From positions 62,001 through 126,000 of the forward strand of contig MNCI01001656.1 of NCBI GenBank assembly GCA_015680685.1: DNA of 64,000 nucleotides, read 5' to 3'. Position 1 is the first letter of the stretch. Each line of letters opens with the position of its first letter. Source of the DNA: Gnetum montanum. Lineage: Eukaryota > Plantae > Gnetophyta. The notes under the pieces were generated by a model. The model was not told the origin of the DNA. It saw only the letters and a program-made list of their open reading frames with translations, and made no database searches. Position numbers and translations under genes: made by a program. This document shows, one piece after another, positions 1 through 33,310 of this stretch.

Positions 1-47
1 TGTTGTTGTTTCTGGTACCACTCGATCTAATCAAGCATTTGCACACG
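1..47 (-). pseudogene. Continuation of element C integrase C-terminus, left of the element B insertion
   Basis: Reverse strand reads RVQMLD*IEWYQKQQ. It joins DLESMK*E at 36466-36500 and matches the B integrase tail DLDSMEEERVRALDQIEWYQRKQR. Confidence 0.85.
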
Positions 48-1084
48 TGAGACACCACAAAATTTCAGCGTAACACTTTGAAACAAGAAAAAACCAGTGC
101 CTCAACACCTGGAGGTTCAAACATCAGACTAATGTGCATGAATCTTGTCATGCACACCAAGGCCATGCTCAAGTCACGCTACCAATGTACGTGCAGCGTG
201 CGCACAGCCTGCGTACAATGTGTGCAACCTTCGGAGCTTTCAAATCAGGTTAAACTAATCCTAATTTGAATGGGCAAGATTCCCTTAGGGCCCACTAATG
301 ATTATTCCAAGTTTCAGCATCTAAAATCCAAGATTTCAAGTCAAAATTGCACAAATCTTGCTACTCATGCTGAGGTCAAGCCTAGGTCACGTTGATAGCA
401 TGAGTCCAACGTGAGTCTTGCATGAGTCCAGCGTGAGTAACTCAAAATAGCCCTAAAATAGTATTAAAATAGCCTAATTTTGAGGGTGAAGGCCCACTCG
501 AGGTCCACTAATGATTGCTCCAGGTCCCAACCCTCAGAATTCTGATTTTGGACCTGAAAATACACCATTTTCAGCACTTACGCCCAGGTCACGTTGAGGT
601 CATTTTGACAGCATGAGCCCAGCATGAGTTGCCAAAATAACTTGAATCAAGGCACAAACAGGCTCAGACTTAGCTTGCAGGTCATCCACAAAGGTAGGCA
701 GCAGTTACACTTGAAAGATAGGTCTCAAAAAATCACAATTTGATGTGAAATGAACCATCCCAGCTTGCTCACACCTAGGTCACACTGACAACTTGAGCCC
801 AGCATGAGTTGCCAAAAGTGGCCTAAATCCAAGCACAGACAAGCTCAAATTGAACATATAGGATGTCCTCAAGGTTGAATAGTAGTTACACTTCAAAAAC
901 AAGTTTTAAAGGTGAAATCTTGATGTAAAATACATCATTTTTGGTCGATCACACTGAGGTCATGCCCAGGTCATGCGAAGGTCACGTTGGCAGCGTGACT
1001 CCAGTGTGAGCACTGGTCATGACCGAGCCAAAGCACTTTAGACACATGATGAGGGCATGCCAGGACAAGATCAACACACGCTGG
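48..1084 (+). repeat. Element B 5' LTR, left part (interrupted by element A)
   Basis: Colinear with 34503-35527. Contains about four degenerate ~190-210 bp subunits rich in AGGTCAYGC and GCRTGAG. Confidence 0.95.
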
Positions 1085-2387
1085 TGTAACAATAGAAAAT
1101 GTCAGTCACTGGAAACACCGAGTGAAATTATGTGTACACAGTTTTAACCCCGGATCTGTACGAGGGCCGTGCTAGAGAAAAAATGAATCTGAGGTGCCCT
1201 AAACAATCTTGTCGATTAGACAGGGACTTCCTCAATCAGTAAATTTGCTAATGACCATATAATGAGGCAACAACTTAATATGAAAACATGTTATCGATTT
1301 ACGAGAAAACGAGATTTGCTCTAAGATCAGATCTCGAAGGTAGTGAAGGTGGTGTAAATTATGCAAAATGATCGTAAAATTCAATATAAACTAGGTTCAA
1401 CGAATTGAACTTTGAACATGCATGATCCCGAGATCCGGGATCTCCCTTTATAGATAAATAGGATAAAGACAATGGGATTTACAAGCAAACTTCGGTTTGG
1501 ATGAGGTATCCACTACAAATAAGAAGCTAATCAGAGATGAAACAAGCAAAGGCTGATCTACCTTGTTCTAGCCAATCTGGGTGTAAGGGAGTTAGACTTG
1601 AAAGTAAAGTATCTACTAACTTGAAATCTCTGGTCAAAGGCTCATGTAGGTCATCGTCGATGCTCTTCTATTGCCAACTCTTTCTCGCCATCTTACCAGT
1701 CTTCACCAAGATAATTTGTCAATAATTTGCCAACAATTGCCAACTGCTACCAATCTCTGCCCCAAAATTGCCAACCCTTTGAGCATTGTCTACCGGGGTA
1801 TTTATAAGATTAGGGTTAGGAGAAGAACATGGTTTAGATGATGCATGTCCTTAGCCCACAAAATACCGTTGACTTGATGTACCATAGCTGGAGTTTGCAG
1901 CATTATGCTGCGCTACGCTCTAGAGCATAATATGTCATAATCTACCCTTGTTTTTAGTGCTACAGGATTTCTAGAGCTTCAGTAACAAACTATCTTGCAA
2001 ATACGCTGCAATATGCTAGGGAGCGTATCGTGGCGTAAGAACCGCTAATGTTTGAATTTTTCTATTTCTGTTGTTGTGATTAAATCAACTGTCTGCTTGC
2101 GTTACACTACGTTATGCTACATTACGTTGCATAGTTAACACGATGTAATATGCCAAAAGTTAAGATTTTCAATCATGGCCAGCTTGCAAAGTTGAAGTGT
2201 TGTTGCTACACATCCCTCATTTCTGTTCTATCTTCTAGAGTCTACTACGCTAAGTTGTGTAGCATAGCGTAGTGGGCCCTTAGTTGAAAAAAGAAGACTT
2301 TCTGAAATGTGCCACTTGTGAAAATCCTTTACCTAGACTTCGAGACTTTGCTAAATCATCAAGGTCTTGAAATTTCACGGTGTTTCA
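1085..2387 (-). repeat. Element A 3' LTR (1303 bp)
   Basis: TGTAAC...TGTTTCA termini; colinear with 16975-18278; adjacent to the PPT. Confidence 0.95.
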
Positions 2388-2402
2388 ATGGCCCCTCTTT
2401 GT
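2388..2402 (-). promoter_or_regulatory. Polypurine tract of element A
   Basis: Minus strand AAAGAGGGGCCAT lies immediately before the 3' LTR start TGAAACA; near-identical to the B PPT. Confidence 0.85.
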
Positions 2403-3590
2403 TGACATTTTGAGGGCTAGCCCAAGAGACGTCGATAAAGAATATGAAACACCACAAAGATAAAGACACCCACATCGTCCATTGGCTGCTGCTCGGATGT
2501 TTCTCTGTCAAGCCTGGAAGTACGAAGGTTGGGAGGGTAAGGAGTAGAAGAGGAATTTGACAGTTGTGAGGGAGGGAGGTTGGGGGAAGACTCAAGTGTG
2601 AGCAGGATATTTCGTAATCATGTCATTAGACAACTTCTCGTGGGTGTTTTCCTGAGAGGTTACACTGCTGCTATATTGTATATGTGGGGCATGCCTGGAC
2701 GAGTTGTGTTATGCCCGTATGGCCTGGATGAGTTGTGTTTCATCCATTTTGCCTATCTTTGCTTGCTCTTTTTTTTTCAGATGTGTTCCATGAGGCTAGT
2801 TGCATTATGCCAGTTCATGGTTGTGATGGTCATTTACGTGCAAAAGACTTCTTGTACGCTCACATTCTATACAAACAGGAGAAGAGAGTAAGGATGGCTA
2901 TAAGGATAGGGGGAGGAGAAAGTAAGATAAGGTGTTTGGTTGGGGGAAAGGTAGGGTCTGCACTCCCAAGTAGCTAGGCCAGTCTGAGCAGCCATCTCAG
3001 AACGCTGTGATACCTCACCCTCCTAGTGAATGCATTTTTGCACAACGCTATCGTAGTAAGTAACCTACAAAACATAATAAAGAACAGATAACAAAAGTAA
3101 TTGTCCTAATCACTGGGGAGGCTGTTGAAATAAGTGTCATCCAAATTGAAAAGGGGAGTGCAGGCCATGGAGAAGGAATCATAGCAAGAGGCACTAGTCC
3201 CTTTATTGATACCATGGCTCAGGAATTCACCGTCGATAGCCAGATTCATCTTATCCAATTGATTGGGCAAAGAACAAGTCAGATGAATCTGCTAAGCCAG
3301 GGCTTGGTGGTAGTGACGGTCAAAGGCAACCAAGGCTATGGGTGACCATAGTTTCCTTGGAGCTCCAAGTGATAAAGCTGACCCCAAGATTTGCAACTAT
3401 AGAGTGGTCATCATAGCGGGATCTCTGAGGGGTTAGTAGTATGCCTTTTGGTATATCCAATGAATCAGTAGCATGCCAGGAGGGTAGTAGCGCTGCATTT
3501 GTTCCAACATCCTATCTGTTCTACCTGGTAGGGATGCTGTGCAAGAATGATCAGGCTCACTTGCTTCGTGGGTAGTCTATTGGTAGCTTC

Positions 3591-3983
3591 TAGTTTTAAG
3601 TCTTGGTAGACACTTATTGCTGGTTTTAAGTCCTAGTAGACCATGGTCCTGGTTTAAAGTCTGGGCAGACTGAAGTGTGCTATTTTTATGTCATAGTAGA
3701 CAGTGGAAGAACTAGTTTATGATCCTAGCAGACCATGCTGTGGGTGTCAGTTTTGTGTCATGACCCAGGGACAAGTCTGTGCTGGTTTAACATCTCAGTA
3801 GACAGATGCTTACCTTGCCAGTTTCACATTGTGGAAAATAGTTGAAAAATTTGCCAGTTTAGCATCATGGCAGACGTGTGCAAGAAATGCCAGTTTTATG
3901 TCGTAGCTGACGTGTACAACACTGTCAATTTTATGTTGTAGTGGACATTTACTACAACACTAATTTTACATCATAGTAGATGT
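3591..3983 (-). repeat. 3' UTR array of element A: 12 units of a GTC-N6-GAC-NNWAAACY motif, period 29-36 bp
   Basis: Unit starts on the plus strand: 3591, 3621, 3650, 3681, 3713, 3748, 3783, 3819, 3855, 3891, 3926, 3961. The core is conserved and the linkers vary. Confidence 0.9.
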
Positions 3984-4014
3984 TTGTTACCTTGCATTTG
4001 AGCCGAGCTGATGT

Positions 4015-7000
4015 CTAGATGTGCTACTACTTCATGTACATGTGATTCACCAGGTTTGGGAGTTCGTTGTCGTTGATATCTACTAGCTTAAATGCTCTAT
4101 TGTCATATGCGTTGACGACTAGGAAAGGGCCTTCCCAACTTGCAAAGAATTTGCTCACTGGTTCACGAATGGCCTTAAGAACTAAGTCTCCTTTCTTGAT
4201 CGGTTGTTGATGCAAGTTGTAATGATGCTTCTATTTTTGCCTGTCCTGATATCTTTCAATGCTGTTGAGCATCTAGATGCATTTCTCCTAATCCGGGACT
4301 CATTGTGTTGAGTCTCATTTATAATCATGGAGAGGATCATCCATAGTGAGGGAACCTATAGTTCCAGAGGCAACACTGATTCAAACTTGTAGACTAGGCT
4401 GTAGGGTGTCCTACCGGTAGCTGTTCTACATGTTGTACGATAGGCCCATAACACATAGAAGATTTTTTAATGCCATTGTTTTTTGTTGTTGTTGAGCATA
4501 TTTTTCAGTAAATTGATGATCACCTTGTTTGTTGCCTCTACTTAACCATTTGCTTGTGAGTAATAAGGTGAGGAAAAAGATTGCTTGATACCAAGGTTAT
4601 CGTAGAAAGATTTTGTTTCGGTGCTACTAAATTATGGCCCATTGTCGGTCACAATAGTTATGGGAAGCCCAAACCTAGCTACTATGTTATCCAAGATAAA
4701 ATAGAAAAATTGTTGAGATGTAGTCTTTCATAGGGGAATAGCCTCGACCCACTTCGTGAAGTACTTAGTGGTAGTGATAATGAAGCTATGTCCTATAGAA
4801 GACTTAGGCATGATGGGGCCTATGATATCTAGTCCCCATCGTTGGAATGGCCAAGTGATTTGTATAGTATGCAATTCAGTTGGTGACATGTGTATTAAAT
4901 TTGCGTAACATTGGCATGTGTCACATGTCTTAACCTTGGTAAGGTAGTCTCATTCCATGTACAGCTAGTAATACCCTAAGCATATGATTTTAGCGGCCAT
5001 GGCTCGTGAGGCTATGTGTCCTCCACATAGTCCTTCATGGACTTCACTAACTATCCTTTGCACTTGGTTGTTATTAACGTACGTTAGCAATACCCCATCA
5101 AAAGATTGTCTCCATAGAGTATTGTCTCTGATGATGACGTATTGCTTGGCATGCTTGTGGATTGCATCTTTTTGTGTAGGTGTTAACTCGTGCAGTGGTT
5201 CGCCATGCAGAAGGTAGGTTTTAATGTTGTCGTACCATTTTGGTGTTCCTCCCGTATTTAGAGAAGAGATTTGCACCGCTTGAATGATAGGGTCTGTACA
5301 TTCTATCATTAAAGCAGGCAAGGTGGCAAACAAATGTGGTGGCATGTTTAAAGCTAATGTAGCTAGTGCATCAGCTACAGTGTTCTCATTACGCGGCACA
5401 TGCCGGACATCAGTCATTGTGAATTATTTTAGAAGATCTTTAGCCATGTCACAGTAGGGCTACAGGTGCACAGCTTTATAGGCATAGACTCCTATGATTT
5501 GATTGAGAATGAGCATCAAATCACTTCAGATTGCCATGTGTTGAATGTTGAGTTCCTTGGCTATTAACAGTCCTTTGAGGGGCCTCTCGTACTTTGCCAC
5601 ATTGTTCGTACAAGGAAACGCTAGGCGGTAAGCCAATGGGCAAACATCCTTAGGGGAGAGCGTAATGATGGTGGTAGCACTGCCACCTTTGGTAGTTGAA
5701 GCTCCATTGAAGTATAATGTCACTTTGAGGCCTGTTGATACAAGGCTTAAACTATGTACATGTTCATTAGGAAACTTAGGCTCTATCATGGCTTGATCGT
5801 TAACGAGTGATGTTACAAGCTGGTTAGCTATCGCTTGGCCTTTCGTGGAAGATTAGCCAATGTAGTGTAAGTCAAATTCTGTTGTGATGGCTTTCCAGTG
5901 GGCTATCCTACTACTCTCATATAAATTATTTGCAATGGCTGGAAAAATGTTATTTTTGCAAATTATGTTAACTTGGCTGTGGAAAAGATAGTGTCTACAT
6001 TTTTTTAGCGTAAACACCAATGCCAAATAGTTACGCTCTACTTCATTGTACCTCGTTGTGTATGCAAATAGAGCATGAATTAGATAATAAATAGGAACTT
6101 CTAACCCATCATCCCTTTTTTAGCACAACAATGCAGCTATAGAAACATATGAGTTTTCCAGGTAGATGTAGAAAGGATGATCCCTTTGTGGCAAGAAAAT
6201 CATTGGCAAGTGTAGCAGCTCTTTCTTTAGGTTGTCAAATGCACACTGGCAATCTGAGGTCCATTCGAAGTTAACTCCCTTCTTGAGCAGATATTGCATA
6301 GGAAGTAATTTGTCTTTAACTTCAAGATGAACCTCCTAATAAATTGTAACCTACCCTGCAACCCACATAGTTCTTTGAGGTCTATAGATGGTGCCAGGTT
6401 AATGATAGCCTTGACCTTGTCGGGGTCAACTTGTATGCTAGCCTCCGATACCACAAATCCCAACATGCATCTAGTCTTGACTCTGAACACATAGTTTCTT
6501 GGGTTGAGATGTAGTTTGTGCCTATGACATTGTTTAAGGATTATCTCCAGATCCTTAGGGTGATCTTCTGACTTTCTAGATTTGACAACTATGTTGTCTA
6601 CGTAGTCGTTCAATCTCTCTAAGAGGTAATCACTAAAGATGTATGTCATGGCATGTTGATAAGCTACTGTAGTGTTTTTTAGCTTGAAAGGCATCATGGT
6701 GTAACAGAAAGTGCCCCAGGGGATCATGAAAGTTGTAGTCAGTTGATGTTCTGGGTTAATACGAATTTGATTATACCCTAAAAACCCATCCATGAAGGAT
6801 AGTAATGCGTGATCTACCATTGTATCAATAAGTTGGTCAATACCTAGTAATGTGAAATTGTCCTTAATTGTTGCCTTGTTCAGATTGCGAAAGTCTGGAC
6901 AGATGTGTATTCCTCCCATTTTCTTAGAGACAACAACAATGTTTGACACCCAATCTAAATAATCAACCATGTGGATGAAACAAACTAGATATATCTTAGT

Positions 7001-7462
7001 GATTTCATCATGCACTACTAGTGCGATTTCAGGTTTATTCTTCTGTGCTTTCTATTTAACTACTTTGATATGAGGGTCTAAAACTATGTTGTGCTGTATT
7101 AGTCTCGGGTCTAAACCCAACATGTCTTCGTATGATCATGCGAATACTACAATGTTATTTTGGAGCACCTGAAGTATGTTGCTCTACATTTGTTGGTCAA
7201 GGAGAGAACTAACTTTCAGAGTTTTACTTTCTCCTTTGTGCATAACCATAGGGACCTCAGTAAGGGGATTCTCGGTCACATCACCTGCCTCCAGGTCTAA
7301 GGTTCCGGCCAAATGTTCTAGCCAGTCTAGGGATATTTTCGATGTTGCTATGGTTATGTCATAAAGGGAAGCATTAGTTCCTATCAGTGCAAGATTAAGC
7401 TGTCTAATAGTTTCCCAATAAGGACTTGTTAGGGCTAGGGGTGTAAGTAAAGCTTTATCCAT
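4015..7462 (-). pseudogene. pol: Element A pol: RT, RNase H, additional archaeal-type RNase H (aRH), integrase; contains stops and frameshifts
   Basis: RT: SFMDGFLGYNQI, YTMMPF, DYVDNIVVKS. aRH: LYFNGAS...CTNNVAKYE...HVPRNENTVADALA. INT: VHEGLCGGH, WPFQRWGLDIIGP, WEGPFLV. Confidence 0.95.
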
Positions 7463-8680
7463 TTACAAATTAACCTGCAAAAACTACCAAGAACGGAAGT
7501 TATTACATTTTTTTTTGTCAATCTAGTGAAATGATAGAAGGTTTTTTAGAGGTGTGTGTTAAAAAGGTTTCAAGTTTAAGGTCTTAGTAGACCATTACAA
7601 TATACACAGTTTGTAAGAAAATAGTAAGCTAGGTTTCCTAGATATTAGCGTAAGACTTTTTTGTGAACTATGATGAAAGGTATATCAAGGTGTGCCTAGC
7701 ATGTCAAAACAACTAATTTAGGATTTCGTACAGACCGTAGTTAATGCAACCGGATTACGAGATGATGAACTATAGGTTAGTTTAGGGTCTTTTCGGACCA
7801 CAATTAATGAGATATCTACGAGATTAATGTTGTGATCTTCACGCTTCATGTCGCATTGACATACTTCTATTTTAGGAAAGTTCCACATTGATCAGACATG
7901 AAAAATAGCTAGTTTCGACCATCATGTTTATAAGTCGATGGTTCATCCCTAAAGCAGACTGTAAACATCATGAATTTAAATTAGGCTAAAGTAGAAGGAA
8001 AGCAGAAGGAAGGCGTAAGTAGATGATTTTGTAAAGTTGTTTAGGCGTAGCCATGGCACTGAAGACCAAAGGCAAACATGCCAAATTGATGAAGATTGAT
8101 AAAGTGTAGGAGAGTTTGGAGCGGATTTCAAAGGCCTGAGTTGAGACTCAGGAGGCTACCCCACTTGCCCAGTAGGTCATTTTTTACCTTCCCTACATGA
8201 TTGTTATTTTCATTATTATGGCATCATAATTGTATTTGTTTTGAAGATGTGTATGATGTTGAGTGTTGATACCTACTTGTGCGGGCTAAGCTATTATAGC
8301 TTGTAGTATTACCCCCATCGCCGTTGTTAGAGACATACCTTGCACCGTTGTAAGGGTTTGGGTGATCTTGGGTAATATTGTACAAACACAATGCATAACT
8401 AGAGGAAACCAGATGTTGTACCCTTATGTAGTGTAAATAGGATTTCATTGTCTTGCCCGTAACGGTTGCATGTTATGCTGGGATAAAATGCGGTGTTACC
8501 TTTATCACCGTTGTCAGAGATAGACCTTGCACCGTGGCAAGGGTTTGGGTAGTTTTGGTAATGCATTTCTAGTGTAACATGTAATTTTCTGGGAGTTGAG
8601 GCAATGAGAACCTTAGTGTTGCGTAATGGATTTTTATTTCTAAGTTGTTTGTCTAATGGTAATGCATTTTATTGTAAAAG

Positions 8681-11600
8681 GATTATGCTAAAGCCCGTCC
8701 TGATCATCTTGGACATTGTTGGCATTTTGTGCTGTTTACATGTCCCCGTGCCCAATGTTCCTCCTCCTCATGATCGTGTAGGGGAGGAGGTGGTTTGGTT
8801 CCAAAAAGGTGCATAGGAGTTTTTGTAGTTTTTGTTGTGTAATTTCAGCATAATTATCTGGTTACATCTATTGGCTGAGACATCTGCCGCCATTCCGGAG
8901 ATGCTACTGGTTGGATCAACGCAGAGCATCTTAATGTTTCTGGTGGATGGTTCAATCGAAACTGTGAGGGAACAAGACCGTGAACAAAGTGCCAAGTGTT
9001 TGAGGCATTTATCTTAGATCTAGAAGATTCCTAGGTTTGATTGTTATCACGCCTACAACACACTGTTCGTGGCTCATCATCTCACAACCTATTTCCAGAA
9101 TCCACCTAGCATCATGTATTATGTAGGTAAGTAAGTGTTTTCATGGTGTTATGATGTGCTAACCATTGTTTGAATTTGTGTCAAGTATAAACAATTATCT
9201 ACATTCTATGATGTAGGTTTTTTTTATCAATGAGCATGGTCTCCAAGGTGATAAGGACATGTTATCTATGGCTGAAATAGCCATAAAGGAATTCACTTCC
9301 ATCGACAATGTGCATGCCGGTGTCCTAGGACAACTAGGATTTGAAATCCCACACTACCCTGTCCACTATGTCAGATTCTTTTCCAAGTGTAAAAGCTCTG
9401 GATGGCTAGATAAGGAGTGGACTTTGGATCGTCTTATCACCATTGAGGACGTGCAAGAGAAAATCCCACCATTTCTTTTACCCTTTGGATGCGGTAAATT
9501 ACGCTATGGTGGTCTACTGTATAATCTTATGGAATGGGGAAAATGTATGAAATTGTATTATTTTGTTGTGTTGTATAAACTGTTGTTTCATGTTCACAGT
9601 TAGGGAATCACGGGAGGTCACGGCGATAGCTTCTGGGCATGAGGTGAGCAGTCTCTTCTTAGGTTATGGTGACATAAAAAATACAAGATTGGCTCTTCCA
9701 TTGAGCGGCCCCAGCTGCCATAACCAATAAACTCTGGGAAGCTGGACTGATGGAGCTATTTTTGGCTATAACCCTTGATGTTACTGCAGCTGAAATGTTA
9801 ACCCTAGTTGACTCCTTCAGCAAAAATGCCAAGCATCTTGACATGCGCGTGCATAACGTGTGTGTGAGTTTTGATATTAACACTTGACAGTTCATCAACT
9901 TTTTCAGCGTTCCTTCTAATGGCCCTCCAGTAGAAGAAAGGTCAAAGAGGGGTTCTAAGCATCAAAAGGACATAGAAGAGTGGCTAGAGGTTAAAAAGAA
10001 ATCAAAAGACATCCTTGCTGATAAAATCAAGCTAGAGGTGGCTAATATCATTTATCCCCTCTTCTGAGCTTGTGCCTTCCCCAAGATGTTCTCCCAAGGA
10101 AGAATCCTTACCATAGAGTAGGCTCAGATCATGCGGGAGGTCATGGAGGAGGGAACATAGTATAATTGGGCTAGTTACCTCGCTGAAGATCTGCAGGCTA
10201 AAATGGTCAAGCTTCGCAAGAAGCTTGAGTCTCATTTCAATGTGCATTTCATCTTTTTCATAGCTTGCTTTTGGCATTTTGCCGAATTCCTGGTGGTTCA
10301 TAGGGATGGAGTCTAGGTGTAGCAAGATCGTAACTAGGTTTCCAAATCGTGGATTTCCTAGGTTTTTTCTACCATTCAATCCCAAGATTCCCCTGAAGGT
10401 ATCGGAGAGTTGCTTTCACTTACGACTAAGGATCTGGTGGCACCTCCCACACGGGGCCAAGAGAATGTGAGTGGGGTGCTCCCTTCTTACACCAGCAGTG
10501 TGTTGAGGGGGAAGTGCTTGGTAGTGAAAATAGTGACTTCACCAATTCAGCAGAAGAAGCATAATCCAACCGTGGAGTCTACTGGCCCGACTGGTGAAGA
10601 GGGAATTAAGTTTCATAGGAATGATCCTCTGGTTGGTAAGTAGAAGAATGCGTGATTAGTTTATATATGTATTATGCTATGTATAGATGTCATTGCATCA
10701 CGTAGCATTTGTAAAAAGTAAATAAAGTTTTGCTTTGGCTAACTGTGTTGTTTGACAAAGAAAGGAAGAGATGTAGAGGAGTTGATCCCTGAAACAGGGG
10801 CCCTAGTTTTATGGTGTGGAGAAGGGGCCCCAGTTTTAGAAGAGGAAGCCCTTGTTAGTAACATAAGCAGCACACAGGTTCCTATGCCTGAAGGAGAGAC
10901 AGGAGTAGAGGATGCTGAGGTCCTTTTGGATGAGCTAGGAAAAAAGAAGCGGTTTGTCACTAGTGAGTTTGACCTTTCCTCAGAGGGAAAACCTCACGCT
11001 ACTATCCTTGAGGATTTTGTTGAATTAATTTTTGCGTTATCGTAATGCCTCAATCGCCTTGATGCATATCGTGCTATGTCTAACTCATTTTGTTCACGTA
11101 GTAGGCACTTTTGATAATAGTGGTGCACCTTTGTCAATAACCCCAACTTAGCATTGGGATGAGACTCCTGATAAATTCACCTTTATGGAGGGCATCGTGA
11201 ACAATATGATCAATCACCTAGAGCGAATCGATCCTAAAATTGGTACATCACTATCATTACACAGGGATTGTTGGCATTGTGACATTGTGTTATTTTGTTG
11301 CATCTAACTGTTATTTTTTATGTTACAGGATGTCACCTTAGATGGGATCCCAAAGAGCCCATTGACATAGAAACTACCCTTGAACCCTCACTAGAGGTGA
11401 TCGAAGTGCCACGTAGCCTTTATGATGAAATGCATAAATGTATGTTATGCTTGGTCCACTCTTTATGGGAGTGTCAGAACCTCAACGAAGATCTTTGGAA
11501 GAGGTTGCAGAAAGAAGAAAAGGAGAAGATGGCATTAACTAATAGGGTTGAGGACGTGGAGTCTCAAAATGAATTTCTGCAAGCTCGGGAGACCAATGAT

Positions 11601-12483
11601 AAGAATTGGTAGATAGCTATGATTTACTATGCTCATTATTGGACGATTGTCAGAAATAGTGTCCAAGCCAACCGTGAGCTCATTGAGTAACAGATGCAAA
11701 TGGATCTCCTAGCCCAGAAGAACCAAGACTAGAAGGACTTCAACGTGAGGGTCCAAGCATGGGGGCAGGCACAAAAGTACCACAAGCATGTGTATAAGCA
11801 AGAAAGTGCTGCCTACCACCAACATTACAAGGATTCTGCTATTGAAGCATGGTCCCTTTGGCTATGCTTCGATGTCATCGGTGCTTTTGGGACGTAAGAA
11901 AAGTTTTAGGAGAAAGTGACAGTAAGTGCCTCCCTAGAGAGAGAAATAAGCTTCCCTAACGGGGAGACCACTATCCCTTCCTTCTTCCTTGAACCACCCC
12001 GATGGACTCTTGTGGAAAAGGGGAAGGTTAAGGCTGGAACTGATCTAGGAGATGGCGTTTGGTTTGAGCTCACCGAGGATGAGATCATGCAATGCTTGTG
12101 GGTTGGCTTGAAACAAATTCCTTTCACGGTTGGCATAGGACCATCATAGGTAAGTTGTACGACTATTGTATTCTTGTTATGCATAGTTTCAATGGTGATG
12201 CTAACATGTGTTTCATGTCAAATCATAGGATCGACATGAGGAGGGTCCTCATGAAGAGGAGTGTAATGGAGACGATGGTCTTCATGAAGAGGATCTCCAT
12301 GAGGAGGATCCCCACAAAGATGATCAACCTCGTGGCAAGATTCCCCATAAAGAAGAGCTTTGCAAAGAGGATCACCCCCATGAAGAGACACCACTCGAAG
12401 AAGGTCCTTATGAGGATGACCTTCATGAGGCTGAGGTGGAGTTGAATGACACAGGTGAAAGTGGTAACAAAGGAAATGTGTAG
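8681..12483 (+). pseudogene. Antisense intron-containing accessory gene of element A: FCP1/NIF phosphatase-like + PMD-like + coiled coil + His/Glu-rich tail
   Basis: Exon peptides include KPVLIILDIVGIL...VWFQKGA*EFL*FLLCNFSIIIW...YNTLFVAHHLTTYFQNPP; FINFFSVPSNG...YNWASYLAEDL; GCHLRWDP. Introns at 9131-9216, 9494-9599, 10636-~10758, ~11020-11101, 11243-11328, 12150-12228. Homologous exon by exon to 24020-27681. The first exon was not resolved. Confidence 0.85.
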
Positions 12484-12603
12484 CGTAGCTATATTGGCCA
12501 ACATTTTGTTGTAATGAAATGGATTAAAGGATAACATTCTTTGTTTTATGTGATATAAAGATTTTAATTTTTATGAAGTGAAACATATTGTTAGAAGGGT
12601 TAC

Positions 12604-12737
12604 ATGTTTTATGCCATTGCGGGCTGTTAATAGTTTAAGGTCATTTCGGGCTGGGCCATCATAAGCATAAAAGGGTATATAAAATTGCCAATTTTAGGCC
12701 ATAGCGGGCTGTAACTAGTTTAAGGCCATCTTAGGCC
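12604..12737 (-). repeat. Four stem-N6-stem motif copies downstream of the element A gag-PR
   Basis: GCC-ATTGCG-GGC (12613), GTC-ATTTCG-GGC (12640), GCC-ATAGCG-GGC (12698), GGCC-ATCTTA-GGCC (12724). Each is preceded on the plus strand by a TTT tract, as in the 3' UTR array. Confidence 0.75.
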
Positions 12738-12849
12738 ATAGTGCATATGAAAAAGCGTAATAAGGACAATGCAAAAATAGAGAGCGTAAATTGCATAACA
12801 GTAAATAATGTGGACTAATGTAACATGTTACGCCAACGTGTTTCATTGC

Positions 12850-15800
12850 TAACTCTGTAATTGCTTCTTGGTTATCTTTAGTTTTCACGACACGTATGGA
12901 CGAGGAGGCTTATTACAACATTCCTCTATGCTACCATATTCTCCCTGAAAATGTAGTTCAACCCAAGACAAGCTTTCATTGGCCATTGTGTCGGCCTATT
13001 TAGTTGTTGGGGTAGGGGTTTGATCTTCAGGGATTTCAATCTTCAAACCCTATTCTAGTTCCATGTTGTTAACCGCTTGCGGGGTCATCTTATCATCATG
13101 GATGATCACTTCCCCTCATATTTAGGGCAAGTGGATCTCTTGATGAATGGGTGATGAGACTGCTCTTAGTTCAGCCATCCAAGATCTCCCTAAGATTAGG
13201 TTGAAACCAAGAATCTCCTCGATGATGATGAACAATGCGTCTGTGGGGAATTGATCCCCTGCTACAAAATTGATGTGTACCGTTCCCTTGACTTGCAATC
13301 ATGCCCCGTTAAATGACTTCAAACATGACGTTGTTGTGGGATTGATCTGGTCAATCAAACCCAGTTTATGCACTATGGGATATGGAATGACATTGGCAGC
13401 TACCCCGTCATCTACGTGTACTCTCCAGATTCTATATTGACCAACGCAAATAGTGATGAACATGGGTGCTATTGTTACCTAACCCTTTTTTGGGTCATCC
13501 TTAATGGACTCATCATGAAATATTAGTTGGAAAGGCCATGATTGTTCAGCGGTGAGGGGAAGCATAATCAAATGGATTGCTTCTTCATCCGCTGGCAAGC
13601 TCTCATCCATGGGTATGGATGCTAACATGCGAACCATGGCTTCATGATATTTTTGAGATGTCATCAGCAAGTCATAGAGACTCAATGTTGTATTTTTCTA
13701 TTTAAGAGCCTGTTTAACTTACGTAAAAGCATTGAGAAGATCATGCCCACGATCTAGTTGCTTATTACCCTTCTTTTTTTCCATTCGTCCTAAGAGACAG
13801 ATCTCTTAGGGAGGAACAGTTTCTGGTTGAGGGTTGCATTTTATTGGGTTGGGAGAAGATGGTTGCATTTGTGTAGCATCATCTTTTTTAGAAGGTGAGG
13901 TCAAGGATGCTGAGGCGAGGGGTGTAGGCTTGGGAAACCCCAACGCTAGTCGATCCTTGGCTGTGTTACCCGTCATACGTCCTTCTCCTTTCTTGTTAGG
14001 TTGTGATTAGGACGTTGACTTAGAGATTTGCTCCTGCGTAGTAGGAGCAACTGATGGCTTTGGCACCTTGATGATAAAGGGTGTCTTAGGTGCGGGCGTG
14101 GGCTAAGCCATGGCTTTACTGATGGTGGGGTGTGGAACGAAGGTAGGAGATAGGACTCAGAGGATGAAAGGTTATCGCTGAGCTGCACGTTTCGATGTTG
14201 ATAGGCTTATCGTCTGAGACAGGAAAAGAGGCACATCGCCCTCCGTACCCACTACGTTGATAGTGTATCCTACATTATTTACGTTTAACAGGTCTTGGTA
14301 CACATGCATGGATTGGTTTTTTGGATAGATCAGACTATTGCAATCTAGGATCAGTTTACCTTGATCGATTATGCATTGAATGTCACTTTCAATGCCTAGC
14401 AGTAATCTGTGTCATGGCCACACATTTAGTGGTAGTCGCAAAAACGATCCAGCCTGAAGTTCTTGGGGATTGGCGGTTCATTAGGCAAGGCTAAGGAGGG
14501 GTTCTTAAGTAGCTCACAATGTCATCTGTGGCACTTCAGAGCCTCCTCAAACATCATCTTGTGTTGGATATGGCCAGTTCCCAGCAGTTTCTTTAGAAGT
14601 TCTGAAGGCTTTACAGGTAGAGCCATGTATTTTAAGTGATCTTTACACTCAAAATTAGGCTTCAGCTATGGTGGTACCTCAAGGGTGGGTGCTATTTCGT
14701 GATCGATGCTTTTTGAGCTAGTTGTGGTCTCAGCAGGTGCCATAGGTATTTTCTTATTGTTATTTTTCTTTTTGGCCCCTTTGGCCATGGCTGCTACTGT
14801 TGTTGTTGCAGCTTTGCCTTTATCTTTGCTCTTGTTGTGGGAATTTTTGTAGACCACATACACTGGATCTTTGCTAGCCTTGGTTGCATCTTGAATGCTC
14901 TTAGTCTAAGCGAAGGCTTGGCTAAGGGAGTAGGGACTGAGATAATACAGTTTAGACTTGATAAAGTTGTTGACTGCCCCCTTGAAGATTGCCAATAGAT
15001 GAGCCTCTATAATGGGTTCACAGATTTCATTCAAGGTGGCGCTCCACTGCTATATAAACTTTTGAATTGGCTCGAGCGGATCTTTCTTAACTCCCATTAA
15101 TTGGTCCAGCATGACTTCTAGTTTCAGTGTGTATTTGAAACAAGTCACGAACTAAGTTAGCAGCTCTTCTAGGGTTGAGATGGAAGAACGCAAGAGTGCA
15201 CGATACCAGTCTAGAGCTTTACCTATTAGGAACATGGTAAAGACACGGATGATGGTATGTGGTCATTGTTGAAGCAACAATGACTCTGACCTGAAGGTGA
15301 CTAGATGAGCGTTGGGATAGCCTTCCCCATTGTATTTTGTAAAATGGGGAAGTGGCATCCTAGGAGGTAATGACAAAACAGGCACTACCAGACTAACAGG
15401 ATCGTCATGGTAAAAATCCATGACCTATATTATGTTAGAATTGGAAACCTTGAGGCATTTAACCTCCTCAGTAAGGGTTTGAATAAGTTGANGAGGAGGC
15501 AACGACAAAACAGGAACTACCAGACTAACAGGATTGTCATGGTAAAAATCCATGATCTATATTATGTTAGAATTGGAAACCTTGAGGCATTTAACCTCAT
15601 CAGTAAGGGTTTGAATAAGTTGAAAGGCTTGATCTAGACCCATGGATGAAGAGGTTGTTTGTGAAATGGCAGGATGAGCCATGTTGGATTCTGGAATAGG
15701 GGCAATAGCTTGGCTTGTGTGCGATGTTATCAGGACTGCTCTTGTAGGTAGTGCTGCTTGTGACATACACCACCCGGTAGGTGGTGTAGATGGGGCAACA

Positions 15801-16657
15801 ACTGTTGACTGTGCCATGGGATATGTTGTTTGCGTAGCTGGGGGCACAGAAAATGGCCCTACAGTGGGGTTTAGTGCTTGCGGGAGTTGGCCTTGATTGT
15901 GTGGGAGATAAGACATCTGCGTAGACTATGCAACAAGAGGCAATGTATTTGGAGCCCACCACACAATGGTGGCAGGTCCTATCATTAATGGTTATGCAGG
16001 AGCAACAGCTGGGATGGTAGAAGCGGTATGTAACTGTGAAGTAGGCACTACGTGCACATGCGGTGATGTGGGTGTAGGTATACGATGAAACGGGTTAGTT
16101 AACTAGGATTGGAGAGGAATAGTTTGTGAAGGAATGACACTCGGGAAGGTAGCCGAAGAGAAGAAATGCTGATGGGCCACATGCGCAACACGATTGACGG
16201 TAGACAATGAAAGTGGCATAGTGATCATAAACAATAGATTTACACGAGACACCGTGGAGGGAAGGACCATAGCAAAGCTAGCATGAATGCCTCCCTCAGA
16301 GTGGGCATCTAGGTCATCCTACCCATCATGAAGCGCTTCATCATGAAAAAACTCCTCTCATTATTCTATTGATGCCCTGGCCATCAATAGTTGATCTAAG
16401 ATCCACTGTTGTTGATCCGTCAGGGGTATGAAAGTGCCAGGTGAAGGTATGAATTCCTTCCCGTTACAATAGATGAACTCGTATTCGTGTTTTTCTTCGA
16501 GTTCTTATGGATACATGGGCAAATTTGCCTCAAGTTTAGTGTAGAGGAAATTATAATGTTCCCTGCACTGAGCATGTTCCTCAAGCTCTTGGTTTTGGAG
16601 CCTGAGAAATCGGCATGGTCGCATTGGACTGGTTGGCGGCTTGACCATAGGAGGCAT
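12850..16657 (-). pseudogene. gag: Element A gag-protease (3' end approximate)
   Basis: N-terminal RFLRLQ..YNFLYTKLEANLP; capsid-like FTKYNGEGYPNAHLVTF; CX2HX4HX4C-type knuckle near 14400-14440; protease VHVDDGVAANVI...FNLILGRSW. Confidence 0.85.
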
Positions 16658-16940
16658 AACTTGCAGCGTCCAAGGGTTTTTGAGGTTAGCATTGTCAACA
16701 GTAGTGGTTGATGTAGCCTTTCTCTATGTAGTTTGAGAGTAATGACAACAAAGATAAAGATCACAAGGGTAAAGATGAGCTAAGACAAAAATGGACTTTC
16801 TATCCTGTAGGATTTTAGAGGAATCATCAAAGCGACCGATCTATACCACACAATCTCGTAAACAACCACAGAGGTATTACATTTATGTCAATCGAAAATG
16901 GGTACAGAAAACTTATAGGACTACCCATGAAATGCAGATT

Positions 16941-16968
16941 GGAGGTTCAGGCCCTCCTTCTAGCGCCA
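16941..16968 (-). promoter_or_regulatory. Primer binding site of element A, complementary to 28 nt of tRNA-Asn(GUU) 3' end
   Basis: Plus strand GGAGG-TTCAGGC-CCTCC-TTCTAGC-G-CCA has exact T-arm, acceptor strand, discriminator and CCA geometry. It lies 6 nt from the LTR. The tRNA identity is from recalled plant tRNA-Asn sequence. Confidence 0.85.
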
Positions 16969-16974
16969 GAAAAC

Positions 16975-18278
16975 TATAACGACAAAAAACATCGGTCATT
17001 GGAAACACTGAACGAAATTCCGTGTACATAGTTTTAACCCCGGATCCGTACGAGGGCCGTGCTAGAGAAAAAATGAATCCGAGGTGCTCTGAATGGTCTT
17101 GTCAATCAGATAGGAACTTACTCAATCAGTAAATTTGCTAATGATTGTATAATAATGCAACGACTTAATATGAAAACATATTATCGATTTACGAGAAAAT
17201 GAGATTTTCTTTGAGATTGGATCTTGAAGGCAGTGAAGGTGGTGTAAATTATGCAAAATGATCATAAAATTAAATATAAACAAGGTGCAATGAATTGAAC
17301 TTTGAACATGCACAATTCCAAGATCTGGGATCTCCCTTTATAGATAAATAGGATAAAGAGAACGGGATTTACAAGCAAACTTTGGTTTGGACAAGGTATC
17401 TGCTACAAACAAGAAGCTAATCATAGATGAAACAAGCAAAGGCCGATCTACCTTGTTCTAGCCAATCTGAGCAGAAGGGAGTCAGACTTGAAAGTAAAGT
17501 GTTTACTAACTTGAAATCTTTGATCAAAGGCTCCTATAGATCACCATCGATGCTCTTCTATTGCTAACTCTTTCTTGCCGTCTCACTAATCTTGGCCAAG
17601 TGAATTTGTTAAAAATTTTCCAACAATTGCCAACTACTACCAATATTTGTGTCAAAATTGTCAACCCTTTGAGCATTATCTGTCGGGGTATTTATAAGAT
17701 TAGGGTTAGGAGAATAATGTAGTTTAGATGACACGTGTCCTTAGCCCAAAAAATACAATTGACTTGATGTGCCATAGCTGGAGTTTACAGCGTTATGCTG
17801 TGCTATGCTCTAGAGCATAATATGTCATAATCTACCCTTGTTTTTAGTGCTACAGGATATTTAGAGCTTCGGTAACAAATTGTCCTATGGTTACGCTACA
17901 ATACACTAGGGAGTGTATCGTGGTGTAAGAACCGCTAATGCTTGAATTTTTCTATCTCTGTTGTTGCAATTAAATCAACTGTCTGCTTGCGTTATGCTGT
18001 GTTATGCTACATTATGCTGCATAGCATAACGTGGTATAATATGCCAAAAGTTAATATTTTCAATCATGGAAAGCTTGCAAAGTCGAAGTGTTGTTGCTGC
18101 GCATCCCTCGTTTCTGTTCTGTCTTTTGGAGTCTACTACATTGACCTGTGTAGTGTAGCATAGTAGGCCCTTAGCCAAAAAAAGAAGACTTGCTGAAATG
18201 TACCACTTATGGAAATCCTTTACCTAAACTTCAAGAATTTGCTGAATCATTAAGGTCTCGAAATTTCATGGTGTTTCA
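16975..18278 (-). repeat. Element A 5' LTR (1304 bp)
   Basis: Colinear with 1085-2387; the inner terminus CA has mutated to TA; adjacent to the PBS. Confidence 0.95.
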
Positions 18279-18283
18279 GCTGG

Positions 18284-19225: not shown

Positions 19226-19245
19226 TGGTGCTAGAAGGAGGGCTT
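19226..19245 (+). promoter_or_regulatory. Primer binding site of element B (tRNA-Asn)
   Basis: TGGTGCTAGAAGGAGGGCTT, 5 nt after the LTR end. Confidence 0.85.
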
Positions 19246-19562
19246 CACGTTTTCCATCTCGATTAAACATTGAACCATACCAATCTATTTACGATTGTAT
19301 TAAATCCTGCAAAATTTTTACGTTGTTGCAAATACAGTAAATTTTGTAACTGTAGCTAAAAATATTAAGTATAGCATGCACACACTATGAAAATCCAACA
19401 CAGTGTACACACACTATAAAGCCCAACACTACGTACACATGCTGCAAAGCCTAACACTATGTATACACACTGCTACGCACACCACGCACACACACTGCGT
19501 CGCATTGCGCTTATGCTGCGCACAAGCTAGCATATGCACGTTCAGGTTGCGCTCATGCTAAT

Positions 19563-19690
19563 GCTTATGCCCAACTTGCTCAAGCTCAGCTTGCATACGC
19601 CTAGCTTGCTCAAGCTTAGGTTGCATATGCCCAGCTTGCTCAAGATCAGGTTGCATATGCCCAGCTTGCTCAAGCTCAGCTTGCATATGC
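19563..19690 (+). repeat. 30-bp tandem repeat (about 4 copies) in the element B leader
   Basis: Unit approximately GCATATGCCCAGCTTGCTCAAGCTCAGCTT. A looser ~27-bp CACACT-rich repeat precedes it at ~19380-19475. Confidence 0.85.
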
Positions 19691-23463: not shown

Positions 23464-23702
23464 CCACCACACATCCAGAATGATGTTAAACTACCACACA
23501 TTTGGAATGATGTTAAACTACCAAACATCTGCAATGACATTAAACTACCAAACGTCTGCAACGACGTTAAACTAGCCATGGTCAGAGATGACCAGTTCTT
23601 CTAAATTCACCGAAACAACTACTGTCTCGCTTTCTTTGACAAAGATGCAATAGTCCACCATGACTTTAAATTGATATGTGTGGCCCAAAATGGCCTTAAA
23701 AT
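23464..23702 (+). repeat. Motif array after the element B gag-PR stop: four 27-bp units plus 2-3 dispersed copies
   Basis: CATC-CAGAAT-GATG-TTAAACTA; CGTC-TGCAAC-GACG-TTAAACTA; GTC-CACCAT-GAC-TTTAAATT (23653); GGCC-CAAAAT-GGCC-TTAAAAT (23682). Confidence 0.85.
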
Positions 23703-24019
23703 ATAGCATAATACATTACCATTTTACCAAAATCTTGCTACGGCATTCTCTCTTACATTTTGCAAATTACAATTTTAGTTTATCTTATGTTTACCAGTCA
23801 TGATTCCAGTTTGCGTTTACGTTCAAAAATAAACTTGAAAAAAAAAACAAAACAAAAGATATAAATATATATAATATGGAGTGTTAACATGGCAATAGGA
23901 TGATGACATATTACACCATGATCATGGTTATATTTGTTCTCATACATCCCAAAAAACAACAAAATGAGCTGAAAAACTAAAGAAAAACTGACAAAAAATG
24001 AAAAGACTGACAAGCTAAA

Positions 24020-27000
24020 TCATGCATTAGTATTAGGAGGGGGCTGGTCCCCAAACTCCCCTACATCATCAACTCTCGTCCCACTGGGGCCAACCTTACC
24101 AAAACCATGTCCCTATCACAAAAAGAAAAAAAAACAACAAAATAAGGAAACACACATAAATAGATTAAAAGAGCAAAAAAACTAAGGAAAATGATGATGA
24201 CTAAAGGCAATAAAACGATACAAGACTAAAACACTCATAGGTGAGCAAGGCCTAAGATTAGCTTCCAGACGTCATAGAATCTCTTCTTTGGGCACACAAG
24301 CCCTTCTCTCTCGAGTCTAAGGTCAACATTGGCTAAGGTTTTACCCTTGTCTGCTAAAGTCCAGGAGGGGCATTCAAGGGAAAACATACTTGTTGAAGCT
24401 TCCCTAGAGGCAGTGATAATGGATCTCTTAGGAGACCCACCCACTTCAGTACACTCAAAAAACTTGTCATAAGAAGAGTGCAAGCCTAATCCTTCAACGA
24501 ACATCTCCAACTGACAATGTTCAACTGATTTCTCTTTCAACCATTTCTTGTATTGATGCTTATGATCATTCTAATCCTAGCCCCATTTACGTACTTTGGA
24601 TGCAAAAGACTTCCAGTCATGGCACTTCTTGTCCAATAAATCCATCTGAGCCCTCTGTTCGGCCAAATCCTGAGTTGCCTGCACCTTGCTATTTAAGATT
24701 ATCCAATAATGTGCATAGGTGATCTCTGACGTACGCCAAGTACTATCACCGACCAGTCTAGCAGAGGCAAAATCATAATTGGCTTGCAAGTCATTCCTCT
24801 CCTCTGTTACCTTCGTCAAATTTTCCTTCAATGATTGAACTTCATGCCATAAGTGTTCAATTGAGCACCTACAAGTCCAGAGAGACTTGGCATTTGAAAC
24901 AAGACAACCCAAAACTACATCATAAATCCCTCTTGGGATTTGCTCAATATCTTTGGGAAATTTAGGGAGACCATCAATATGGGTGGCCTCGAAAGGGTTC
25001 CATTGAAGCTTTGCACCTACAAGTACAAACATCACACATATGAGCTAATAAGAGATTGCCAATAGATGCAAAAGCACAATCAGCTTAGGCACTTGGTATA
25101 GAGTACATACCTAATTCAGGATGAGCCTGTTGTAGATGAGTAACAACATCATTGACGATGCCTGTAGCAAAGTCTACTTTTTTGGGCATCTCAGGCCATG
25201 ACCTCAATTAACTAGTAGATGTTGGATCTACATGGGAAGGCACCTCAATTGAGGCCTATAACTCCAAAACATTTGCCTAAGATACATGTGCTTCAGATGC
25301 TTCATCATCCACGTCTGGTGTCAGGAAGAGTCATGACAATCAAAATAATGTGCAAAGCTAAGAAGTACAAAATGCAGATCAAACTAACAAAACATACTAA
25401 GAAGCCCTTTGCTGGTCAGCTTAGGTGGATCACCAAGGTGTAGAGATCCATCAAAGAAGCTGTCAAAAACACCTTTCTCCTCACTTGAATGATTAAGGGC
25501 ATCTAAAGCATCAACAAGTGTCACTTCCATGACATATGTTTCATTCCCTCCCTGTAAGATGGAAATATCCTCAGCTATTTCTTCTCTTATTTCTTCCTCT
25601 TCATTTACCCCAATGATAACTATTTCAGGTTCTCCCATTGGAGCTAATTCTTCCCTTTCCTTCTTGGGTATATCCTCTATGATCACCAATAAGTCTAAAG
25701 TTAGCATGACATAATAGGTATGCATACTTAAGAAAGAAAATAAAATCAAAAAGCGATAAAAACACTTAAAGTAGAAAAATACTTACCTGCTCCTGGCAAG
25801 ATGAATTGGATCTTCTTTGCTTTCAGCGGTCTTGCCTCCATAGTAGGTTCCCTTGAATGCTAAGCTCTCCTAACAGTTGTGTGCAATTTAGATGGTTCTA
25901 ACCCCAAGCTATCATGCGAATGGTGGGAATGACTAGCTGCACCCTCTATTGTGATGGAGACTAATTCTTTGATGCCTTTGGATGGATCTTGGTATCTAGT
26001 GATGTTAACTAGATGATAGATCTAGGGGCGAGACAATTGTGAATGATCCGTTAACACATAATGGCTATCTCCATAGACCACTAAGAACTCAACAAACCTA
26101 CGGAGATAGCCTGCGAAAAAGGCAAAGGTGAAATGGGATCTCGCATCAACATTGGAACGTAGCCTGATGATCTCTCCATAGATCCCTAACCCAAGGAACT
26201 GTGCCCAATCGTAGTGCATACCAATCTCCAAGACTAAGTGCATAACATGTGTAAACTCAACCCCAAGACTTCTCGCCTAAGAAAGAGACTTAGGAAATGG
26301 TCATGCTCTAAAGAGTGGATACAGAAAATTTACCTCCATCAAATGAGTATCAGCTTGCATGGCAAAATCCTTAGGATCCCATGGTACACCTAGCCAGTCT
26401 TCAAGTTCCTTGATTACATGGCCTTCTCTAGTTGCTCTATCCACTACCACCTTAGCACCATCTACTGGTACACCAAAAAGATCGAAAAAGAATTCAGTGG
26501 TTAGATGGAAAGATACCTTAACTCCCTGAACTCATGTAGTAAAATATGAGACATCATCATTAAAAGAGTCAACGATGGAAACCATTTTAGTCATGGGAAT
26601 GTTAGGAGTCAAGGCACTAAATAGGTCCATCAAGCTCGCATTTGTAAGGTGGTTGATGATTTTTTTAGGTGCCTTCTTGTGCAGCCACCATTATGACTCC
26701 TCTGTCTCTTCAAACTTCATGAAGAGCATAGCCTCAGTGCACCCAGATATGTCGGTAACCTCATTAATGGAAATTGCCACTGTAGAAAAGACAAGGAAGA
26801 CATTGAGCAAAAAGTTAAGAGTATGATAAGCAATGATGTTACAAAAATGAAAACCAAGCCTGGAACACAATCATTCACCATTAGCAAATGGAGTAGGCAC
26901 ATTTGGTGTAGGATCAACCATTTGGGGAAAAAATGGCCTATCAAGAGATCAATCCTCATGCAACTAGCTGTGAACTTTACAACGTTCAAAGGCCCTAGAA

Positions 27001-27681
27001 AATTTCCTAGGATAATTGACAATAGCACCCTTGGTTTGATCTAGCACCACAACACGAAGAGTGGGGCCCATCATGAATGCCTCCAAGGCTATGAGTGCTA
27101 AGGGAAGCCCACTATCATCCTCATGCAATCCATAATCATCAACATGGAGCCTGCAAAGGAAAAGTATTCATACGTAAACAATGATATAACATTAAAGGAA
27201 CCAAAGTTAAGATAAGTATAAAAGAGCATACCTATCTATTCTGTACACTGTTCTAGGAGGATTTTGGAACAACTTATGCACATGGAAAGCTAGAAAAAGA
27301 GTGCTACTACTGTTGTAATGGCTGCAAGATGATAATCTCCACACACGGGTCAAAGGACATGTGGATCTAGGACCTTTAGGAACACCTCCCTCGACTGTAT
27401 ATAGTCCCTCGTCTATGTCAAGAATGAAGGCTAACATGCCTCATGTTGAGCCAGGTAACATGGTCTCAACAATATCACGAGTCAGCTGCTCGCTCAAGTG
27501 AGACCATATGACAATGTTGAAATTCTGCAAAATAAATGATAGAAATGTAGTAACATTTGGATGAAACCATATTACATGCTGCCCGATCTGCATGTCATAA
27601 CTAGGCATGTTCGGTCCCAAAAGGCCAAACCAAGATAGCACACCAACAAGTTCAACCACCAGGAGAAAAGGCTTAAGTCCC
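24020..27681 (-). pseudogene. Antisense intron-containing accessory gene of element B, homolog of 8681-12483
   Basis: KPFLLVVELVGVL...IWFHPNVTTFLSFILQNFNIVIWS...YNSSSTLFLAFHVHKLFQNPP; FFDLFGVPVDGAKV...HYDWAQFLGLGIYGEI. GT-AG introns at 27151-27231, 26780-26878, 25677-25786, 25315-25397, 25017-25110, plus ~24113-24238 with a mutated donor. Confidence 0.85.
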
Positions 27682-32983: not shown

Positions 32984-33003
32984 TAAGCTTAAGTTATGCT
33001 TCG

Positions 33004-33310
33004 GTCCTGGCATCATGACCTAAAACTAATACCAAAAAATGGTCCTAGAGCTATGACTTAAAACTAGCACCACAGAATGTTTTGGCATCATGAAAATAAA
33101 CTGACACCATAGAGCTTTGTCCAGTATGATACTAAACTACCACACTTGTCCACCAGAGTCGACTACGACTATAAACTAGCTTGCCTCTTCATAGTTCACT
33201 ATGACTATAAACTAGCACTGCATCATTTGTTACGATGATAAACTGGCAACATGCAAAGGATTATGGTGTGAAACTAATCCACAATAGTTCACTAAGACTA
33301 CAAATTGGCA
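33004..33310 (+). repeat. 3' UTR array of element B: 9 units of the same stem-loop+AAACT motif, period 31-39 bp
   Basis: AAACT-type cores at 33023, 33061, 33098, 33134, 33173, 33209, 33240, 33271, 33302. Example unit: GTC-GACTAC-GAC-TATAAACTAG. Confidence 0.85.

Follow-up and report, generated by a model that had tools for sequence, protein, structure and literature searches.

Are the short repeats that follow the integrase genes of two retrotransposons in Gnetum montanum an ordinary satellite, or do they specify a structured RNA, and if so, of what kind? An earlier note had described them as arrays of covarying mini-hairpins and had interpreted them as multimeric protein-binding sites in RNA or in palindromic DNA. 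We addressed this question in the 64,000-nucleotide stretch at positions 62,001 to 126,000 of contig MNCI01001656.1 (hereafter the window), which is plant-type DNA carrying three nested Ty3/gypsy elements, A, B, and C:

1085–18278, minus strand: element A, a Ty3/gypsy Tat-type LTR retrotransposon with LTRs that are 86% identical
1080–1084 and 18279–18283: 5-bp target duplication of element A
48–36465, plus strand: element B, with gag, protease, a long spacer, RT, aRH, and integrase; LTRs 85–89% identical
36466–39750, minus strand: pol fragment of element C, 78–80% identical to B and continuing at window positions 1–47
8751–12047, plus strand: broken antisense coding region in the protease–RT spacer of A, 30–36% identical to that of B
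24319–27614, minus strand: broken antisense coding region in the protease–RT spacer of B

Element A is inserted in the 5′ LTR of B, and B in turn is inserted in the integrase end of C; the post-integrase region of C, and with it a predicted third array, should lie immediately beyond the left edge of the window. In both A and B the order is gag, protease, a spacer of 5.4–6 kb, RT, aRH, and integrase, with gag-PR and RT-RH-INT as two separate coding regions, and every reading frame of the window's elements is broken. A domain search placed RVT_3 at 31335–31901 of element B, between RT and rve. Because an aRH between RH and integrase is the mark of Ogre/Retand (PMC6317226), this arrangement assigns the element to the Tat clade. 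The separation of gag-PR from pol, the 5-bp target duplication, and the large size are likewise Ogre-like (PMC6317226). Unlike Ogre, in which the protease–RT spacer averages 274 bp (PMC6317226), the window elements have a spacer of about 5.4–6 kb with an antisense coding region, and a comparison with Ogre for the plant mobile domain gave no match in them. An antisense coding region within the protease–RT spacer, conserved in A and B, is an unusual site for an extra ORF; a Pfam search with the two regions gave no convincing family. The PBS at 16968 (minus strand) and at 19226 (plus strand) resembles what we take to be the tRNA-Arg type. Family A is very abundant: in each of four DNA runs, 9,698–12,975 contigs matched positions 3300–4300, with 30 of 30 bins covered.

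The repeat units, which we picked by resemblance to the pattern, lie at the following places:

3590–3983, minus strand: post-integrase array of element A; 12 units resembling the viral coremin motif (see below), 10 hexaloop and 2 with a 10-nt loop; 8 of 12 matched by a model built from viral units alone (see below)
33002–33308, plus strand: post-integrase array of element B; 9 units, of which 6 are hexaloop (one degenerate) and 3 have a 10-nt loop; 6 of 9 matched by the virus-only model
12603–12738, minus strand: gag-protease cluster of A; 4 units, their stems of the GCC/GGC type, about 150 nt past the likely gag-protease stop (12887)
23471–23704, plus strand: gag-protease cluster of B; 6 units at the gag-protease end, the first four at a 27-nt period, as in viral arrays
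7571–7800, minus strand: two single pre-pol units of A (7777–7800 and 7571–7594), upstream of the pol ATG (7462)
29390–29413, plus strand: single decayed pre-pol unit of B, 141 nt upstream of the pol ATG (29532); no match to the virus-only model
39572–39624, minus strand: two pre-pol units of C, one hexaloop and one with a 7-nt loop, upstream of the pol ATG (39447)

The 12 and 9 units that had been claimed for the post-integrase arrays are present, and the arrays begin, as described, within 20–35 nt of the pol stop: the first unit lies about 33 nt past the likely integrase stop of A (4017) and 20 nt past that of B (32981–83). The gradient in period also holds, from 35–39 down to 29–31 nt in A (35, 35, 36, 36, 32, 35, 39, 32, 31, 29, and 30) and from 37–40 down to 31 nt in B (38, 37, 40, 39, 36, 31, 31, and 31), as does the occurrence in both elements of a variant with a 10-nt loop (two in A, at 3808 and 3773; three in B, at 33003, 33041, and 33078). 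The unit is not, however, limited to these arrays: 15 further units occur elsewhere, at two sites that A and B have in common and in element C, bringing the total in the three elements to 36, of which 30 are hexaloop units and all 36 face in the element sense. All are placed after stops or before the pol ATG, the pre-pol units (two in A, one in B, and two in C) lying about 130–176 nt ahead of it. A and B, whose pol DNA is only about 64% identical, thus carry units at three equivalent sites. The unit of A at 7777–7800 has the loop CGAAAA, a Watson–Crick stem, and AAACTA, and the mid cluster of B may lie in frame at the gag-PR end.

The pattern RYCYRNNANGRYNNWAAACT had 11 matches as compared to 0.04 expected. 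Units with a perfect 4-bp stem, a C-G closing pair, a 6-nt loop, and the tail occurred six times in the sense strand of A (0.3 in shuffles) and six times in that of B (0.2 in shuffles), and the same scan returned none in the antisense strand of either element; a scan for geometry alone peaked at a loop length of 6.

The claim that the stems covary was borne out by the 30 hexaloop units, in which all four Watson–Crick types occur at pair 4 and the covariation score (0.62, versus 0.31 when shuffled) collapsed to 0.19 or less when partners were slid. The closing pair is C-G in 23 units, T-A in 1, T-G in 4, and of another kind in 2, in keeping with a pyrimidine–purine rule. Watson–Crick pairing was found at pair 2 in 28 of 30 units (T-A 22, C-G 6; permuted mean 18.5; reached in 0 of 100,000 permutations), at pair 3 in 26 of 30 (G-C 20, A-T 6; permuted mean 18.2; reached in 74 of 100,000), and at pair 4 in 20 of 30 (C-G 6, G-C 6, A-T 5, T-A 3; permuted mean 7.6; reached in 1 of 100,000), with the qualification that these permutation counts overstate independence because the units arise by duplication. 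Within A, pair 2 is T-A in one cluster and C-G in another. A fifth base pair was unsupported (11 of 30 paired, not significant). Deamination as the sole cause of the covariation was ruled out for pair 4, which carries transversions and whose covariation therefore cannot be produced by methyl-C deamination; it could partly mimic the transition-only pairs 2 and 3.

The loop, which had been described as variable, is not free and has the consensus C/T, G/A, any, any, A, mostly T: among the 30 hexaloops, position 1 is C or T in 27, position 2 is G or A in 29, and position 5 is A in 29. The spacer that follows at a fixed distance from the stem is likewise constrained (A16 in 30, A17 in 30, C18 in 21 with T in 7, T19 in 27, and A20 in 18 with G in 10 of the 30 hexaloops), and the spacing from hairpin to tail is fixed while the linkers have diverged.

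This combination of features corresponds to coremin, or xrRNA-C, an Xrn1-resistant RNA motif of RNA viruses that stalls Xrn1 (PMC6546385, PMC10520033). Coremin needs a closing pair that is pyrimidine–purine, either C-G or U-A, pairing with free identity at pairs 2 and 3, the spacer A16–A20 (given also as A15–A20), and a second hairpin, and pair 4 is dispensable (PMC6546385). The tetraloop prototype is that of BNYVV RNA3 and the cucumoviruses (PMC6546385). The hexaloop form, known in umbra-, enamo-, hypo-, chryso-, tombus-like, and noda-like viruses, has the consensus loop YGNNAD and an AAACUA spacer and occurs as a repeated motif in 3′ UTR and intergenic positions (PMC10520033); loops of the CAGAAA type are reported to be inactive in vitro. 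A pseudoknot between loop and spacer has been proposed (PMC10321173), and papers from 2023 describe the structure of coremin as unsolved. The conserved and the free positions of the window units are those predicted by the published mutagenesis. Like the viral motif, the units have a first hairpin of 3–5 bp that is closed by C-G and has free Watson–Crick stem pairs, a 6-nt loop constrained at positions 1, 2, and 5, and an AAACUA-like spacer at equal distance, and they are arranged in tandem just past stops or between ORFs. Unlike the viral motif, they reside in chromosomal LTR retrotransposons in up to 12 copies rather than 2–4, with longer linkers (a period of 29–40 nt), a 10-nt-loop variant, frequent G20, and CpG-type decay, and their second hairpin and their stalling of a nuclease are predictions.

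Pattern scans located the window's unit in small viral contigs directly behind long ORFs. A metagenome scan with the pattern yielded at least 127 stretches (long bacterial contigs were excluded from the counts), and another, based on the published consensus, yielded 91. The ORF preceding the motif in the viral contigs encodes an RdRp, a capsid, or a nodavirus protein in 32 of 48 cases, belongs to other families in 5, and is without a match in 11. The gap between the end of the ORF and the first unit has a median of 14.5 nt and is 35 nt or less in 24 of 36 loci, near-duplicates included, and the viral periods are mostly 26–27 nt, as in the mid cluster of B. Sixty-seven RNA-virus units, in which loop position 2 is G in 65 and position 20 is A in 66, were used on their own to build a covariance model, with which the window was searched at E ≤ 10. 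Of the 35 matches obtained, the top 24, and 27 in all, were units listed above, in the element sense throughout (best E about 0.001, the E-values being rough); this test is not fully independent, a pattern derived in part from the window having served to find the viral set in the first place. Rfam gave no match in window positions 1–40000 at E ≤ 1 and, across 20 loci, only a BTE (in L001), so the motif is covered by no Rfam family, and the exact tetraloop prototype had no match when three mismatches were allowed. Judging from these sequence comparisons, the units are probably tandem copies of the hexaloop coremin motif of RNA viruses that, in active copies, would stall host XRN4.

Does the motif occur in other retroelements? 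In one contig (L089, positions 428–655, minus strand) seven units, all with YGNNAD loops, begin about 75 nt after the stop of a LINE-like ORF of 1126 aa (RVT_1, E 3e-30; an endonuclease-like N-terminus was judged by eye), which suggests a wider use of the motif in retroelements. Soil and root-associated contigs (L027–L150, in clusters of 33 and 17 loci) contain long arrays of up to 32 units (L102) with CpG-type decay, shared flanks, and almost no identifiable ORFs; these are likely repeats of eukaryotic genomes. Some soil contigs (L080, L091, L037, and L065) have gypsy or copia fragments close to arrays, but we did not count these as support, because their orientation or distance is ambiguous and L080 resembles a fold-back contig. 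Versions of the unit with 10-nt and 8-nt loops exist outside the window (L273, L277, L278, L132, and L149, with three 10-nt copies in the giant-virus bin L273), and none was present among 34 RNA-virus loci checked. As to relatives of A and B, 0 of 150 pattern-scan loci had a tblastn match to their proteins at 1e-5. An integrase search found none in viral contigs and 30 loci in genome contigs; when 18 of the 30 were scanned with the motif model, one weak match (E 0.91) was obtained, and since only L243 (about 270 nt) and L245 (about 520 nt) reach past the integrase end, the array is not shown by these loci to be general in Tat elements.

These distributions bear on both readings offered previously. 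That the units are multimeric RNA-binding sites for Gag or for the antisense-encoded protein, serving as a packaging or export signal, would account for hairpins that are present in many copies, face only the sense direction, and have a conserved loop, and A and B each carry a conserved antisense coding region; we nevertheless consider it quite unlikely. Unrelated RNA viruses and the LINE-like element keep the loop and tail yet share no such protein, which indicates a host target, and the unit instead matches the published Xrn1-stalling motif position by position (PMC6546385, PMC10520033).

The alternative of palindromic DNA fares worse. Some elements encode VANC-like anti-silencing factors, and inverted half-sites 6 bp apart could be bound by a dimeric element-encoded factor of this kind; moreover, the antisense proteins of Retand are predicted to bind DNA (PMC11963269). 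Against this, positions 2–4 accept any complementary pair while the loop and a one-sided tail are conserved, no unit departs from the sense orientation, and RNA viruses share the motif. Because the units all face one way and share loop and tail with RNA viruses lacking a DNA stage, DNA sites are unsupported, and we regard them as exceedingly improbable. The part of the earlier interpretation that called these arrays covarying, functional-looking RNA hairpins rather than an ordinary satellite stands, and the palindromic-DNA part finds no support.

Many window units depart from the viral rules. Only 3 of 30 hexaloop units (3876, 3734, and 7799) conform to the loop, stem, and AAACT rules together, as do 0 of 9 units in the post-integrase array of B. 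Loops are YGNNAD in 9 of 30, YANNAD in 13, and of a YR start ending in C in 3. Loop position 2 is A in 16 of 30 (versus G in 65 of 67 viral units), and 10 of 30 have G at position 20 (versus A in 66 of 67); A20G does not appear among the tested mutants in the available text of the published mutagenesis. The departures at loop positions 1–2 are C-to-T and G-to-A changes, in elements that are CpG-depleted (o/e 0.46 and 0.36) and whose LTR differences are mostly transitions. The rule-breaking changes look like those expected of CpG decay in old copies, and the window copies are old and mostly decayed. In the best 40 of 455 rows, 7 of 17 family-majority differences in the array of A bring back a letter or pair that the motif requires (3651, 3683, 3722, 3830, 3837, 3937, and 3963), one drops the loop-5 A (3634), and another gives G20 (3650). 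The loose-end cells have C-G at loop 1–2 for the proximal units of A's array, the distal end still being without a loop-2 G.

Could the arrays then be a neutral tandem repeat, or a viral motif captured once and amplified by slippage after selection was lost? Most window units break a coremin rule, and family-specific tandem repeats are frequent in the non-coding regions of Tat/Ogre/Retand elements (PMC11963269). Neutrality is very unlikely, however, in view of the compensated transversions, the fixed spacing from hairpin to tail despite diverged linkers, the three equivalent sites in two distant families, and the difference between the clusters of A at pair 2 (T-A versus C-G).

The second hairpin that coremin requires is weak: one of −1.5 kcal/mol or lower was predicted for 13 of 36 window units (20% when shuffled) and for 35 of 67 viral units (37% when shuffled), and folding of the whole arrays was not exceptional (z −1.5 and −0.9). 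The 10-nt loops fall outside the range of 4–8 nt tested in published coremin work. At 3925–3960 (minus strand), the linkers past the first two units of A are complementary to loop and 3′ stem sequence of the unit that follows and can form 9-bp hairpins with it (−9.4 and −5.9 kcal/mol), a possible alternative fold supplying the second hairpin.

How would xrRNA arrays serve the element? Decapped RNA is degraded by XRN4 in the wake of the last ribosome (PMC8892269). Once the element RNA had been decapped or cleaved, the enzyme would trail the last ribosome along it and halt at the first folded unit beyond the stop codon, leaving a stable, untranslated 3′ RNA; the remaining tandem units would serve as a reserve. 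Protection by the post-integrase array would cover the last 1.2 kb and the 3′ LTR part of the RNA, and that by the two upstream clusters would extend to longer pieces containing pol. In Ogre, a partly spliced intron lies between gag-PR and RT-RH-INT (PMC6317226), and acceptor-like TTGGTAG sequences just ahead of the pol ATG in A (about 7484–7493, minus strand), B (29514–29520, plus strand), and C (about 39460, minus strand) are possible ends of such an intron. Were the spacer an intron of the Ogre kind, an array would come directly after the stop in the gag-PR message, which is unspliced, as well as in the spliced message for gag-pol. By analogy with BNYVV ncRNA3, a silencing suppressor (PMC5086608), the product might, speculatively, weaken RNA silencing; conversely, transcripts escaping XRN4 can enter RDR6 silencing (PMC8892269), a possible cost to the element. 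We infer the function from the close match of the units to experimentally defined coremin rules.

The same fold could have been selected for a different property. Scanning ribosomes stall at the hexaloop coremin in extracts of both reticulocytes and wheat germ (PMC10520033), and the units might block scanning or re-initiating ribosomes past stops and before the pol ATG, leaving pol translation dependent on splicing. The placement of the pre-pol units of A, B, and C, 131–176 nt ahead of the pol ATG, and the Ogre-type intron mentioned above accord with such a role, whereas the longest arrays sit behind the last ORF and have no downstream ORF to guard. We consider this explanation unlikely; a ribosome block is compatible with the stalling of XRN4 and does not exclude it.

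A broader proposal, to which we attach little confidence, is that several kinds of eukaryotic retroelement (Ogre-type LTR elements and LINEs) have their RNA processed by XRN4 at programmed sites, provided by xrRNA arrays of the viral type. If so, trimming to the pre-pol unit, 130–140 nt ahead of the pol ATG, would generate a pol-only subgenomic RNA, trimming to the post-stop arrays would generate non-coding RNAs that counter silencing, and some of the Tat/Ogre tandem repeats that lack an explanation, as well as some of the satellites derived from them, would be amplified nuclease blocks.

In the Tat clade, short and degenerate repeats are known from the interval that separates pol from the 3′ LTR, and the tandem repeats of Tat/Ogre/Retand elements are listed as being of unknown origin and function (PMC11963269). 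Unlike those repeats, which are family-specific and, in the available text of that paper, come without a hairpin analysis, the window units are common across families and match a characterized RNA motif. The class 1–3 xrRNAs of flaviviruses and of tombus- and solemoviruses (PMC11702639) would serve the same purpose, blocking 5′–3′ exoribonucleases, with larger folds of another architecture. In a search of largely open-access literature, we found no report of an xrRNA native to a retrotransposon; transposons go unmentioned in PMC10520033 and PMC11702639, and the accessible portion of a 2025 review on host factors of plant LTR elements brings in Xrn1 only for Ty1 packaging and antisense decay (PMC12786077). 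What we describe is an RNA motif already known from viruses, present here as long arrays, at three conserved sites, in an element class for which that search found no report. Exoribonuclease-resistant RNAs have been published as viral, and the units connect them with the Tat/Ogre/Retand repeats, whose function becomes testable by a cheap Xrn1 assay and existing degradome methods. Control of RNA decay would be added to plant retrotransposon biology, and the very high copy number of family A offers far more natural variants of the coremin motif than before.

Finally, we note several other features of the window. A 30-bp tandem repeat with a 15-bp subunit is located at 19562–19690 (plus strand), inside the long gag N-terminal region of B, and short repeats of an 11-bp type (the AGCGTGAG / CTCACGCT family) are found in the LTRs and pre-pol spacer of B (397–980, 28060–29150, 34830–35260, and 40660–40720). 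A 132-bp duplication at 15362–15627 has a single N at its junction (15492) and is probably an assembly join, and a 584-base assembly gap lies at 53949–54532. In the AT-rich part, a direct repeat of 82% identity has copies 5.8 kb apart, at 49227–49780 and 55007–55580.
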